DNA from: Puniceicoccales bacterium
Lineage (GTDB): Bacteria > Verrucomicrobiota > Verrucomicrobiia > Opitutales > JAIRKQ01
DNA: 64,000 nucleotides
Direction: 5' to 3'
Assembly: GCA_031267915.1 (NCBI GenBank)
Contig: JAIRYE010000013.1
Coordinates: 45,439 to 109,438 of the forward strand
The stretch's first letter is position 1. Each line of letters starts with the position of its first letter. The position numbers were made by a program. This document shows, piece by piece, positions 22,301 through 28,300 of the stretch.

Positions 22301-25300
22301 GCGAAGAGGCGATTGAAAGCTGCCCCGTCAATGCAATAGGGAACGACGGATAAATTTTCCTCTCTGCCGGCATTGATTTGAATAAGGAGCAAATTGCATT
22401 TCGAGCTTTTCGTGTTCCCTGTGCCACCCTGATGGTCGGTGCAGCTGTCAGAATTTTCTTTTATTTTTTCCACTAAAGCGTAAAATCGCACTCTCTATGG
22501 CAACCTACACAGGTGAAATTCACGCAGCGGCATTCGGATTCGATATGTCGGATGGCATCCGCGATAGGGAAATCGACTCTCAAGTTACACTGGAAGGCCC
22601 ATACGAAGGAGCAAAGGCCGATTTGCACGAAGATTCAAAATCAATGATAGCTCTGGCGTTGGAAATGGATGACTGTCCAACCGATGACAGAATCAATCGC
22701 GACCGCCTCGTCGATCGTGACATTAGGGAAAAAAAGAAGGTCGCGGAGAAGCAAAAAATTTTTTCATTCTACATTAATAGACTCGACCGACACCGCGGAA
22801 CCAAAAGGTACTCCGACTACGAAAATAAATTAAATCGCCTGAAGCATCAAATTACATTTCAAAGTCTGAAATCCCCGGGGAAAACCGGAGAAAAAAATCT
22901 CACATTCAACGGTGAGGACCTAGCAGAGTTCATACTGCGTGATCTCTCGCTTGACTTCGATGAAGTAACCGAACAGGATAATGTCCTCGAACTTCTGCAG
23001 AAGCTGGAAGACTTCGAATGCGAAGCAATCAGGGGAGAAATAGTTGCCAGCAAAAAAATGCTCCGAACCCTTCAGGGGAAAGAAAATGCAAATTTCAATC
23101 GGAGAATCGAAGACCTAAAGGAAAAAATACAAACCCTGGAAGAACAAGTCAGCTATTCCCCTCTTTTCAAGCAAGCCTTCGCCGACGCTCAAAAAAAATT
23201 GAGAAAATCCCACGCCAGGGAAATAGAGGATGGCTACAATTTAATTCCGAAGGCTGCAGATCTGCTGAATGATCCCCTGATGATAGGCGGACAGCAACTA
23301 TCCGCCATGGATTTTGCCGCAGTGTACAGGGACAAAATTTTGTGCTGCAATAATTTTTTAGAGGCATTTTTGGCCATCATCGACATGTGCAGAGTATCGC
23401 CGGATTCCAGCAGCCAAAAATCAATCGCCCCATGGGCCATGGCAACGGAAATTATAAAGCAAAAAAAACAAACGGGAAGTGTGGAGGAAGTCGACAGCAA
23501 GGGTTTCGGGAAAGTGGTGCACATGCTCATCGAACTTCTCGGCAGAGACATGGAATCAACAAATCCTTCGCGGGACAAAGACATGCTGGTGGTTGTGCGC
23601 GAAGGGCTTTTTAGAGTCGAGGTGTCAGGGCAGCTGTTTGGGCACATAAAAACATTCCGCGATCTGGTGGTAAAACACTTTTCGGAAGCTGCGGCAACGG
23701 AATTCAATTTGGAACGGCACATTGACCTAACAAAAATGGTTGCAAAAATGTCCGCACAACCATTCGCCGGGAATACCCAGATATTCGATTTAATGAAGAA
23801 GACTGGCATCGACATGGAAAACATGGAAATGGCAATATTTGGAATAACGCAATTCCTCGAGGTTATACGAAAATTACCCATGAAATTTTTCATGGAACAG
23901 GACTACAGGCTACAAATTCTTACCTCCACGCAACACGAGTTGGACAAGCTAATTATCAGGGAAGAATTAGATGAAACGGAGTCTACGGAGGAATGAAAGG
24001 AGACGGCCTATGCAACTAAATGAGATAATAAGGGAGTTCGGAGAAGAAATTGGATTTCAATCGCTGGAAACCAATGAAAATGGCGTCGTTCACCTGACAA
24101 TACATGGAGTGGGAGATTTATTCGTCGATCAAAAATATTCCGAAGAGGCAGGGAACTGCGTATTTGTGTACCTGCTGCGCGTATACGAAAGATTCGATGG
24201 CGACCTGTACAGGCGCGCACTGCTGCTGTGTGACTACCAGTCAACTGAAGAATTTGTTATAAATCCAGTGCTACACCAGGATCAGGCACTGGGATTCGCT
24301 GTCAAATATAAAATTGACGATTTCGACCTGAATGTTCTGGATAAAATTATTCACAAGTTGAAGGATTTGCAGGACAGATTGGAGGGTGATTCCCAAAGCT
24401 AAAGGGCCCAATGAATGCAGAAAATAAAAAGAAAAACACACCGAAAAATACCGAAAAATATGGCATGAATTTTGGCATAATCGACATTTCAAAATTGTCG
24501 TCAAAAAATCAACGCTCTCACCTCCCCAATAGCACATCCGTCGATCCCTGCGAAGGGAAAATTGAGGAAAAATTAAAAAGAGTCCTGGAGGTCAAGACGC
24601 TGTCGCAGACAATAATACACCTACTCCATCCGGAAATAACCGACAGAAGCATACTCACTCCGCAAAAATTTCGACTGAAAATTCGACAAGTTTGCCGTGT
24701 TTTTGCGGACACATTGGAAAAAGACAGCGCAAATTGTCCATCCGAAGAACTCTTCAAAAATGTCATTGACCTGCTAAAAAATGAAGAGGAAAAATGTGAG
24801 CTGCTCGACCAGTATCGACACATGCTGCTGCTTGGGTAATATTATGGGCAAAATGTATTGATTTTTTACTTGGATATATTAGCCTAGGGGACTGTTTCCT
24901 GTGGATAAAAGCCAGAGAGAGTTTGTTCTAGTGCTAGCGTATTTGTACATCCGCTATGGAAAATACGATGAAGCACTGATACTTCACCGTGGACTGTGTG
25001 AATTTTTTCCCGACGATGTTGAAATTTTACTGGGATTGAGCTTTTCGCTGTATTCAACGAATCGGGGGATGGAAGCGCTGCAGTATTTGGAAAAATTGGA
25101 TGGGGTCGAGATGAGCAGGAAGTTGCAAAAGCTATTTTTTCTGCTCCGAAGCCACGCAATTTGGGGCACCGGGAAAGATCGTGAGGCACGCAGCTATCTG
25201 ATTCAGTATCTCGGCTTGGAGGAGGGCGAAATTCGAACAAAAGAGGCTAATGTTGGCAAAGAAACTGAGGAGTATTGGCTGTGACTGCAAAAGGTGGAGT

Positions 25301-28300
25301 ATTAAATTTATCCAGATTCAACGACGTCATTCTGGCATTCCTGGTGATGATGATCATAGCTCTGATGATCATGCCGGTGCCAACGCATGTTCTGGATGCC
25401 TTGCTCGGAATTAATCTGACTATATCGGTACTGCTGCTTATGCTTTCGCTGTATATCCCTCGAACACTAGATTTTTCAACATTTCCAAGCGTTTTGCTAT
25501 TCACGACGCTGTTCCGGCTAGCCCTAAACATTACAACCACCAGACTCATCCTGGTCCATGCGGACGCCGGACAAATCATTCACACGTTTGGAAATTTCGT
25601 CGTGGCTGGAAATTTCGTCGTGGGAGCAGTCATATTTCTAATTATTTTGATCGTCCAATTTGTCGTGATAACCAAAGGTGCTGAGCGTGTTGCCGAAGTC
25701 GCCGCAAGATTTACTCTGGACGCCATGCCAGGAAAGCAAATGAGCATCGACGCGGACGTGCGTGCGGGAGCGATGGACAACGAAACTGCAAAGTTTAAGC
25801 GCAATGAACTTGGCCGCGAAAATCAACTGTATGGAGCTCTCGACGGAGCGATGAAATTCGTAAAAGGGGATGCCATAGCAGGTCTGATCATAACGGTTGT
25901 TAACATCGTCGCCGGACTTATCATTGGCATACTGCAAAAGGGAATGACGGCGGAAAAGGCACTGAAGGTATACTCTCTTCTGACAATCGGAGACGGCCTA
26001 GTTTCTCAGATTCCAGCCCTTCTGATTTCAATGACCGCTGGTGTCATCGTCACTCGTGTCACCTCCGACACGTCCACCGCTCTGGGACAGGACATTTCCA
26101 AGCAAATATTCGCCCAGCCAAAGGCAATGCTAATTGCCGGAATAATGGTGATTCTAATGATGATGATTCCAGGCTTTCCCAGAATACCGTTCCTGATTCT
26201 CGGAATACTATTGTTCTTTGGAGGAAGAAGGATAGCTAAGGCATCCCGCGTTAAGCAATCCGTCGCACGTGCTGGCGCACCGGGGCTGCCCTCCGATGCT
26301 AGCCCAAAAGCTTCCCAGGCAAAGCAGGAGGATGGGGAATTTTCAGTCACGATTCCGCTGCTGCTGGACGTAGCTACGGTCATAGAGCAGTCCGTTGAGC
26401 CGGATCTTCTCAATGACCAATTGATTCAAGTCCGCCAGGCTCTCTACTACGATCTGGGGGTTCCATTTCCGGGAATTCACCTGCGGTTCAATGAAAATCT
26501 CGGAGACGGAATGTACCAAATTCTTCTGCAGGAGGTTCCCGTTTCCCAGGGGAAAATACTTCCGGGGCATGTTCTTGTGAGGGAAACCAAAGAGAGTCTC
26601 GGCATTCTAAGCATACAATTTAAGGAGGAAAAGCCATTCCTTCCGAACATGCCATCGCTGTGGGTGGAAAATACTCTCATTCCGCAACTGGAGCGTGCAA
26701 ATATCCAGTACATGAAGACGCCGCAGATATTTACCTATCACCTGTCTTTCATTCTCAAGAAGTATGCATCGGAGTTCCTGGGACTGCAGGAAACTAGATT
26801 TCTGCTTGAAAATATGGAAAAGCTATTCCCCGAGCTCGTCAGAGAAGTTCAGCGCATACTGCCCGTTCAAAAAATTTCAGAGGTGCTGCAGCGGCTAGTG
26901 CAGGAGGAAATTTCCATCAGAAATCTGAGACTGATCATGCAGTGCCTGATAGAGTGGGGGCAGAAGGAAAAGGAACCCATACTTTTAACGGACTATGTGC
27001 GCACGACACTGAAGCGCTACATCAGCTACAAATACTCCGGCGGGCAAAATATTTTGGCAGTATATCTGCTGGATCCGGCCGTTGAAGATGTGATAAGAAA
27101 AGCCATTCGCCAGACATCCGCAGGAAGCTACCTTGCTCTCGACCCCGAAACTGCCAAGAAGCTTGTCCATGCAATTAGGGAAGAGGTCGGTGATTTTACA
27201 AATGAAACAAACAGACCTGTGCTACTCACATCCATGGACATTCGCCGCTACGTGCGCAAACTGATAGAGCTTGAGCTGTACGAACTGCCCGTATTGTCCC
27301 ACCAGGAATTGACTGAGGAAATAACCATACAGCCACTGGGCAAAATAGGCATGCCCAGGTAGTTGATCCCTTCAGCTGCATCCAATTTCACTCATTTACT
27401 CGGAGCTTTTGCATCTCCGGAGAGGAATTATTTTTCTGAAGAAATAATTTGGAACGGAAGTGCCTAGTCTAAAGCTTTCCGCCAATATTTGTTCGTTTCC
27501 ATAAAAATCCAAATCTTTATTTTGGTTTTTTCACTTGACTTCCTCTGCGATATGTGTCACTAAAAACCTATGGAACGCAACAAAATCTTTAATGCGATAG
27601 GACGCAAATTCTCACTAGTCGCAGTAATATTTGCAATTTTTGCCAATTCCATGGGCGCGAACTCACTGCAACAAGCTGGCGACATTCTCCAATTTGTCAT
27701 ACCAACCTATGCCTTTGGAGTTTCGTGCTATAAAAAGGATTTCCAAGGATCAAAACAATTCCTCTACGCGCTGGGTTCATCGGCTCTAACTGTGCACGCA
27801 CTGAAGATTACAACAAACGAAAAGAGACCAAATTTCTGCCCGGGGGATAAGAGGATATCCTTTCCAAGCGGGCACACTTCCGCCGCTTTCCTCGGAGCAA
27901 CATTTATTCACCGCAGATATGGGTTCAAACAGGCGATAATACCGTACGGGCTGGCTGCGCTAACTGGCTATTCGAGAGTTCAGGCGAAAAAACATCACGT
28001 GCATGACGTCCTAGCCGGAGCACTCATTTCAGGGATTTGCACATGGATTTTCGTCGATGAGAAGGGCGGTGGCATATCGGTATCATCCGATGAGCACATG
28101 TCCACAAAAGTCGCCTACGAGGTTGCATTTTAGGCTTTCCGCATTTTAGGCTTTCCGCAATCAGCATTTTATTTTCTTCGGATGCCGGCGGCATTCGTTT
28201 TTGGAGAGGAAATTTTCCAAGTCCTGCGGCGTGTTTTTATTCGACTTGGCTGAAAAATCTTTCATCCTCCCACAATGCGAAATTATCTGGAACTTCTTGG

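Follow-up and report, generated by a model that had tools for sequence, protein, structure and literature searches.

The window, a stretch of 64,000 nucleotides (nt) of Puniceicoccales bacterium DNA (assembly GCA_031267915.1, contig JAIRYE010000013.1, positions 45,439 to 109,438), contains five intact and tightly packed open reading frames (ORFs) on the + strand between positions 22497 and 27362. In the order sctW-sycN-sctX-sctY-sctV, these very probably form the gatekeeper and export-gate operon of a Ysc-related injectisome, or type III secretion system (T3SS). Puniceicoccales belong to the Opitutia of the phylum Verrucomicrobiota, within the Planctomycetes-Verrucomicrobia-Chlamydiae (PVC) group. 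From sctW to sctV the genes are separated by gaps of 13, 8 and 61 nt, followed by a 4-nt overlap in which the sequence GTGA at 25281-25284 supplies a candidate GTG start for sctV and the TGA stop of sctY. The first-pass annotation of this DNA had reported the overlap together with a yopN/tyeA-sycN-X-Y-V gene order; both were seen in the sequence, and the products of the X, Y and V genes exceeded the cut-offs of curated family models.

The sctX gene (24411-24839, +) encodes a protein of 142 amino acids (aa) assigned to the YscX family, predicted to be a secreted substrate with SctY and the SctV ring as its binding partners. The protein scored 59.7 bits against Pfam model PF09474 (YscX; cut-off 25) and 71.8 bits against NCBIfam model TIGR02502 (SctX; cut-off 30), the family match covering residues 19-141 and nearly the whole profile. 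These hidden Markov model (HMM) searches had been proposed as the check on a first-pass reading of the ORF as YscX, which they support. A phmmer search of PDB sequences returned no match to SctX, and only profiles recognise the protein. The gene lies between the sycN-type gene and sctY, 5’ of sctV, which is the place it occupies in Yersinia, Aeromonas and Nitratidesulfovibrio vulgaris. The hydrophobic C-terminal helix LLDQYRHMLLLG aligns with the YscX C-terminus LLQIILNLLHKV, and in YscX a hydrophobic C-terminal helix inserts into the SD4-SD4 cleft of SctV (PMC9163089). The first 18 residues of the window protein are polar and lysine-rich. Such an N-terminus is probably shared by the closest Puniceicoccales homologues, since these cover the full query at 61-70% identity and the start giving 142 aa is that of the JGI gene call.

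SctX is 100% identical to MDR1401803.1 (LBI81_02500), encoded on a 159-kb contig of a Puniceicoccales metagenome-assembled genome (MAG), in which the gatekeeper carries the locus tag LBI81_02490. Its homologues formed 70 clusters with identities of 43-70%, drawn almost exclusively from Puniceicoccales and Opitutales MAGs, and the earlier impression of a PVC-like genome was thereby borne out. All clusters other than P0061 (69 of 70) have a precomputed PF09474 hit and the name “hypothetical protein”. A profile built from diverse X proteins found 623 clusters in total, Lentisphaeria and Victivallales among them.

The sctY gene (24901-25284, +) encodes a 127-aa protein of the YscY family, a predicted tetratricopeptide repeat (TPR) chaperone of SctX. 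It had been likened to YscY by eye, and the likeness held: the NCBIfam SctY equivalog NF052415 matched at 78.3 bits against a cut-off of 70 over profile positions 1-104 of 106, and the PDB SctY chain 8arc_A aligned along its full length (residues 4-105, E 0.006). A single-sequence AlphaFold2 model (predicted local distance difference test, pLDDT, 79) contained seven helices, arranged as three TPRs and a capping helix, and its best natural fold matches were LscY (8arc, 30% identity) and YscY (7qih and 7qij). The modelled fold is consistent with SctY but not specific to it. The gene stands directly 5’ of sctV with an overlap, an arrangement also found in Yersinia and at the comparison loci L001, L003 and L007. 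As the iterated local Y HMM drifted into class II chaperones of the LcrH/SycD type, a Y gene was counted among relatives only if it lay directly 5’ of sctV.

The first gene, sctW (22497-23996, +), encodes a fused gatekeeper of 499 aa, with YopN-like helical domains followed by a C-terminal TyeA domain. The TyeA-like C-terminus noticed in the first-pass annotation was recovered by Pfam model PF09059 on residues 410-490 (34.6 bits, cut-off 21.1), and the accompanying check for an HrpJ domain gave no match at E<=1 in the Pfam scan. An SctW HMM constructed from 18 gatekeeper sequences, with the window protein left out, hit residues 331-491 at E 1.9e-21. The match spans the junction of the YopN C-domain and TyeA, and strong alignment was confined to these residues. 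An AlphaFold2 model based on 25 homologues had a pLDDT of 80.7 and a predicted template modelling (pTM) score of 0.70. All PDB fold matches of this model at E<=0.001 were T3SS gatekeepers, namely Bordetella BopN (7yyg, 3.4e-6), Chlamydia pneumoniae CopN and Salmonella InvE; lower ranks were taken by Shigella MxiC (E 1.0e-3 to 3.1e-3) and, more weakly, by YopN-TyeA and SepL. The best 15 fold matches were gatekeepers, with target-normalised TM-scores of 0.6-0.67 over 350-400 columns. The reciprocal SctW HMM, the model and its gatekeeper-only fold matches together show the 499-aa protein, as predicted, to be a complete fused gatekeeper.

Alignment of homologues P0130-P0156 with the window protein revealed three states of the gatekeeper within a single order: fused, cut after approximately residue 300, and cut before TyeA. 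The fused state occurs in the window (499 aa) and in more distant MAGs (446-454 aa). In the closest relatives it stops beyond a point equivalent to roughly residue 300 of the window SctW, and in others just before TyeA, at about 355 aa. The window SctW has a unique linker at approximately residues 304-330, modelled at low confidence.

A class I chaperone gene follows sctW at 24010-24402 (+), encoding 130 aa from its ATG; the mechanical ORF, 23971-24402, would encode 143 aa. With AGGAG 8 nt ahead of it, the ATG at 24010 is the likelier start. The product matched TIGR02503 (SycN) over profile positions 2-119 of 120 at E 3.6e-9, with 36.5 bits against a cut-off of 84.55, and Pfam Type_III_SycN (PF21665) with 20.7 bits against a cut-off of 27. 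An iterated local HMM placed it with the sycN products of Yersinia, Aeromonas and N. vulgaris, which all occupy the same gene position. The expectation of a class I chaperone after the gatekeeper gene was thus upheld by a full-length SycN model match in the sycN position, and the name SycN-like is used because match and position agree but the curated cut-offs are not reached.

The export-gate gene sctV extends on the + strand from 25281 (GTG) or 25275 (TTG) to 27362, and encodes 695 aa from 25275. Its product scored 911.5 bits against TIGR01399 (SctV; cut-off 692), 653 bits against the flagellar FlhA model TIGR01398, under the cut-off of 772, and 769 bits against Pfam FHIPEP. When GTDB species were scanned at one genome each, the identities to the window SctV among the matches listed were 73% for Puniceicoccales, 64% for Chthoniobacterales, 57% for both Lentisphaeria and the rumen MAG RUG11483, 56% for Achromobacter, 55% for Kiritimatiellota, 53-55% for Oxalobacteraceae, Bilophila/Desulfovibrionaceae and Belnapia, and 50-51% for Chlamydiae. 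Within a plasmid collection they were 55.5% for AscV, 54.3% for LcrD, 51% for N. vulgaris SctV and 42-43% for each of MxiA and HrcV. The window SctV retains the equivalents of YscV R551 and R669, two residues facing the C-terminus of YscX. These arginines were considered as a marker of an X-binding gate and rejected as uninformative, since they are present in all injectisome SctVs examined.

Phylogenetic placement was by neighbour-joining of 42 SctV and FlhA sequences over 656 columns, using Kimura distances, 200 bootstraps and unrooted splits. The window grouped with Puniceicoccales and Chthoniobacterales in 100% of replicates, and this trio with Lentisphaeria, Kiritimatiellota and RUG11483, forming a non-chlamydial PVC clade, in 98.5%. 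That clade joined Desulfovibrionales in 82.5%, and PVC, Desulfovibrionales and proteobacterial Ysc sequences were united without Chlamydiae in 90.5%. The window SctV therefore lies outside the gammaproteobacterial Ysc clade of Yersinia and Aeromonas and groups with PVC and Desulfovibrionales, and within the PVC clade the tree tracks taxonomy. SctV had been called unambiguous, and the tree, run as a check, placed it neither with flagellar FlhA nor in a family lacking X and Y. The injectisome accordingly belongs to a lineage common to the Verrucomicrobiota taken broadly (Opitutia, Chthoniobacterales, Lentisphaeria and Kiritimatiellia), closest to that of Desulfovibrionales and within the Ysc-type clade. 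As the system sits in this broad clade, SctX and SctY occur where the T3SS family predicts them.

It is exceedingly unlikely that the operon belongs instead to a chlamydia-type injectisome, ancestral to the PVC group and outside the Ysc family, which kept X and Y or gained them independently. A split uniting PVC with Chlamydiae was obtained in 0.5% of replicates, against the 90.5% for the Ysc-type clade without them, and on these splits the system is Ysc-related and not chlamydial. The cytoplasmic domain of SctV scored 404.7 bits to YscV (7qij) compared with 315.4 bits to C. pneumoniae CdsV (6wa6). The PVC host itself would suit a chlamydial origin, as would T3SS genes scattered among housekeeping genes (PMC3459982) and the long GreA encoded nearby, yet at three chlamydial sctV loci examined the order was V then W, with neither X nor Y. 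The single-chain gatekeeper resembles CopN, which is among its top fold matches; fusion is nevertheless no chlamydial signature, because Desulfovibrionales, Lentisphaeria and Achromobacter, too, encode the gatekeeper as a fusion as a rule.

The genomic setting of the operon bears on a further alternative, a recently acquired proteobacterial Ysc island or a misbinned proteobacterial contig. Horizontal transfer of T3SSs is frequent (PMC3459982), and SctV shows about 54-58% identity to AscV, LcrD and the Achromobacter SctV; among the matches listed, however, the Puniceicoccales and Chthoniobacterales proteins are closer than that of any proteobacterium, X homologues are present in dozens of Puniceicoccales MAGs, and within the PVC clade the branching of SctV agrees with taxonomy. 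The operon is flanked 5’ by ligA, clpC and a small ferredoxin gene and 3’ by a PAP2 phosphatase gene, thyA, folA and lpxK, and a secretin of the verrucomicrobial Amuc_1098 family, described below, is encoded on the same contig. The G+C content is even, at 44-49%, across the surrounding region, with no compositional break. With these housekeeping flanks and even composition the operon shows no sign of being a recent island, and recent acquisition or misbinning is highly improbable.

The first-pass annotation had also remarked that sctU does not follow sctV, and this is so, the PAP2 gene, thyA and folA coming next. The gene directly 5’ of sctW encodes a 4Fe-4S ferredoxin (Fer4_13; 22051-22353, +). 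Terminator-like hairpins were present after this gene, at 22429-22451 with a T-run, and after the PAP2 gene, at 28179-28197. Both are weak hints of transcript ends, and the first hints as weakly that sctW may start its own transcript; promoter and terminator scans were at background level, with 9 terminator-like sites against 6.6 expected.

A second T3SS-type locus lies about 16 kb from the operon on the opposite strand. Its recognisable member is an LcrH/SycD-like class II (translocator) chaperone of 175 aa (4689-5216, -), which matched TIGR02552 (LcrH_SycD) at E 1.4e-17 and 63.7 bits, under the cut-off of 104.8, as well as Pfam TPR_3. It is 36% identical to the chaperone encoded 3’ of sctV at the Opitutales locus L089. 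Three ORFs of 405, 337 and 316 aa lie 3’ of the chaperone gene (1440-4684, -) and are putative translocators by position; none had an NCBIfam match, and the 316-aa protein had a weak match to the SseC family (E 2.4e-4, under cut-off). Directly 5’ of the chaperone gene is an ORF of 1358 aa (5226-9302, -) that neither Pfam nor NCBIfam models recognised. Over its last 220 aa it shares 27% identity (E 1.5e-18) with the C-terminus of a 470-aa protein whose gene, in L089, precedes that of the LcrH-like chaperone 3’ of sctV. From its position the 1358-aa protein is possibly of the tip, translocator or effector class. Given that a homologous chaperone operon directly trails sctV in L089, the LcrH-like operon appears to have moved away in the window, and its chaperone is taken to be a detached component of the T3SS that the gate operon serves.

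Profile scans found no other T3SS core genes in the 64-kb window. The secretin encoded at 51635-53578 (+) was considered as a dispersed SctC and rejected: it scored 332.7 bits against the Amuc_1098 NCBIfam model, under its cut-off of 750 bits, compared with 63.9 bits against SctC, and is an Amuc_1098-family type IV pilus secretin. Its gene adjoins ftsW, a LysM-protein gene and mur genes. The dispersed T3SS loci proposed at first pass are consequently represented by the LcrH/SycD-like locus at 1440-9302 and not by the lone secretin.

Using local iterated HMMs and deposited annotation, the W-SycN-X-Y-V order was found in Lentisphaeria, Bilophila, another Desulfovibrionaceae MAG, plasmid pDEVAL01 of N. 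vulgaris, Achromobacter, an alphaproteobacterial and a gammaproteobacterial MAG, Belnapia, Yersinia and Aeromonas. The N. vulgaris genes are labelled, in order, sctW, sycN, “type III secretion protein”, “tetratricopeptide repeat protein” and sctV. Across these loci the gatekeeper is a single chain of 374-471 aa, except that YopN and TyeA are two proteins in the Yersinia/Aeromonas type. At L003, L014 and L015 the order is secretin-W-SycN-X-(Y)-V-SctD. In L014 (Kiritimatiellota, 5476-8082) and L015 (RUG11483, 5555-8058) X abuts sctV and no Y intervenes; Y-like TPR genes were observed 2-4 kb 3’ of X-sctV at these two loci. L089 has the order YopN-like, TyeA, SycN-like, X, Y, V, followed by genes for proteins of 147 and 470 aa, a TPR_3 chaperone and a further gene; YopN-like and TyeA are separate there, and the translocator operon trails sctV as in Yersinia.

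Closer to the window, L001 (Puniceicoccales, SctV 73% identical, 1-8064) carries Y-V alone, after ORFs that resemble prs and cysS by eye. L088 (Puniceicoccales, 3939-6417) carries YopN-like, TyeA, SycN-like and X genes beside sctD and needle genes, with no Y-V after them. At least one break has separated X from Y in the operon of Puniceicoccales. A 549-aa ankyrin-repeat protein, a candidate eukaryote-targeting effector, is encoded next to the X gene at L088:7563-9212 (-).

Such breaks, together with the split gatekeepers, the scattered genes and the lack of adjacent sctU, sctRST and lcrGV-type genes in the window, might suggest a decaying remnant, with the T3SS undergoing dismantling and the module no longer a working gate. 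All five ORFs are nonetheless intact, with conserved overlaps and short gaps, and many MAGs encode conserved versions of their products. A T3SS can be scattered and still function, as in Chlamydiae (PMC3459982), and a split YopN/TyeA is functional in Yersinia. Decay is an improbable account of the operon.

Small Y-like TPR genes were also observed directly 5’ of, and overlapping, sctV at two loci outside the Ysc-type clade (L021:5642-6025 and L085:2535-2966), whose SctVs join that of Bradyrhizobium in the tree. At neither locus was an X-like protein detectable. YscY-like proteins encoded 5’ of rhcV have been noted earlier for the Rhc family (PMC3574062), in agreement with this arrangement. On these comparisons X, and not Y, is the component confined to the Ysc-type clade.

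Several points weigh against assigning the operon to a Ysc-related injectisome. SctX shares only 15-20% identity with YscX and AscX, and the conserved 46-RLYP-49 motif of YscX, which contacts SD1 and SD2 of SctV (PMC9163089), aligns with KRVL in the window protein and is thus not conserved; it is missing too from the other PVC and Desulfovibrionales X proteins aligned. The LscY and YscY matches of the SctY model sit among designed TPRs at E of about 0.02, the fold not being specific to SctY, and the SycN-like protein falls below both curated SycN cut-offs. The tree is a neighbour-joining analysis of one protein with moderate deep nodes (82.5% for the join with Desulfovibrionales and 71% for the sister position of Chlamydiae), and its references, of which the canonical ones came from the plasmid collection, were without Pseudomonas, Bordetella, Lawsonia and Verrucomicrobium spinosum. 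The T3SS loci visible in the 64-kb window are two only.

In the window genome the T3SS has been split into separate loci lying among housekeeping genes. By analogy with Yersinia, a working scheme for the module can be proposed (PMC9163089, PMC10233624, PMC5864894). SctY, with its three TPRs, would hold SctX soluble in the cytoplasm, and the hydrophobic C-terminal helix of SctX would slot between protomers of the nonameric SctV cytoplasmic ring at the stalk-protein site. The resulting SctX-SctY-SctV complex would make the gate competent for export of early substrates, after which SctX would itself be exported by means of its N-terminal signal. The SycN-like chaperone, probably together with a YscB-like partner whose gene lies elsewhere, would maintain the fused SctW in a state ready for export, and SctW may dock at SctV and retain effectors until host contact.

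It is conceivable, and is put forward here tentatively, that the module marks an old and mostly vertically inherited lineage of Ysc-related injectisomes across the broad Verrucomicrobiota, which was later fragmented in Puniceicoccales in a chlamydia-like manner. If so, SctX and SctY would predate the split between PVC, Desulfovibrionales and proteobacterial Ysc systems, and the fragmentation would point to a long-term, perhaps obligate, association of Puniceicoccales with eukaryotic hosts. SctX and SctY are essential in Yersinia and poorly understood. The pair is standard in a much wider Ysc-related clade that takes in Verrucomicrobiota, Lentisphaeria, Kiritimatiellota and Desulfovibrionales, and X and Y sequences as divergent as these (15-20% identity) can help to define the residues needed for the X:Y:V interaction. 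The relatives offer natural experiments, with X unlinked from Y-V, X next to V without Y, and the gatekeeper split at two points. Uncultured Puniceicoccales are flagged as likely injectors of eukaryotic cells with a scattered T3SS, as in Chlamydiae.

Elsewhere in the window, a 1154-aa protein (31240-34704, -) had no Pfam or NCBIfam hit and full-length PDB matches to 6k31 (E 1.9e-300) and 8e1u, identifying it as a pyrophosphate (PPi)-dependent phosphoenolpyruvate carboxykinase. The GreA homologue (35881-37749, -) has 622 aa, its GreA/GreB domains being confined to residues 470-618, and its 460-aa N-terminal extension had no family match. Its length recalls the long GreA of Chlamydiae.

Among known systems, the operon shares its gene order, small overlaps and Y-V overlap with the Yersinia virA/lcrE operon yopN-tyeA-sycN-yscX-yscY-yscV (lcrD), the equivalents of which are aopN-acr1-acr2-ascX-ascY-ascV in Aeromonas and the corresponding genes of Pseudomonas aeruginosa. 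X, Y and V of the Yersinia/Aeromonas type are homologous to those of the window by curated models, with SctV about 54-57% identical. In Yersinia, YopN (293 aa) and TyeA (92 aa) are separate, whereas the window encodes one chain of 499 aa. In Yersinia, too, lcrR-lcrG-lcrV-lcrH-yopB-yopD follow sctV; no such genes do so in the window, where the LcrH-like operon is about 16 kb away. The narrow Ysc family (Yersinia, Pseudomonas, Aeromonas, Vibrio and Photorhabdus) is encoded at a single locus, and the window system, with its scattered genes, fused gatekeeper and different SctV clade, falls outside it.

Desulfovibrionales (N. vulgaris pDEVAL01 and Bilophila wadsworthia) have a fused sctW, sycN, an X of 122 aa, a TPR Y and sctV, as in the window, and in the SctV tree no clade outside PVC lies nearer to the window (82.5%). 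Their T3SS is the ‘Desulfo’ group of Abby and Rocha 2012 (PMC3459982). In N. vulgaris sctS-T-U follow sctV and a translocator operon lies just 5’, in a compact plasmid island, unlike the housekeeping neighbours in the window. Kamneva et al. 2012 inferred a Desulfovibrio-like donor for the T3SS genes of V. spinosum (PMC3542564), a proposal that agrees with the SctV tree obtained here. The loci from Lentisphaeria (L003), Kiritimatiellota (L014), RUG11483 (L015) and Opitutales (L089) belong to the same SctV clade as the window (98.5%) and are compact clusters, unlike the window; in the first three a secretin and SctD flank the module, and these are absent beside the window operon. Chlamydiae (cdsU-cdsV-copN-scc1) resemble the window in being PVC hosts with scattered T3SS loci and a single-chain gatekeeper of the CopN fold, and differ in the V then W order, the absence of X and Y at three loci and an SctV that does not group with that of the window (0.5%).

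Non-flagellar T3SSs were reported by Abby and Rocha from Chlamydiae, Proteobacteria and Verrucomicrobia, with Chlamydiales, Hamiltonella defensa and a single plasmid of Yersinia pseudotuberculosis listed as cases of scattered loci (PMC3459982). SctX and SctY have been reported as unique to the Ysc family of Yersinia, Pseudomonas, Aeromonas, Photorhabdus and Vibrio (PMC5864894, PMC9163089, PMC10233624), all of them gammaproteobacterial systems, which accords with the Ysc specificity stated in the first-pass annotation. A literature search found no report of type III secretion in Puniceicoccales and none of SctX or SctY in PVC bacteria. The surprise of finding them in a PVC genome is smaller than it was first judged, because the system lies inside the Ysc-type clade, N. 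vulgaris already has this module with part of it annotated, and a Desulfovibrio-like donor was proposed in 2012. What is new here is that a gate operon of Ysc-related type occurs in an order from which no T3SS report was found; existing family models already recognise these proteins. Judged by sequence comparison, the operon does not place X and Y in a foreign T3SS family; it is a widening of the known Ysc-related family, not a new kind of system.

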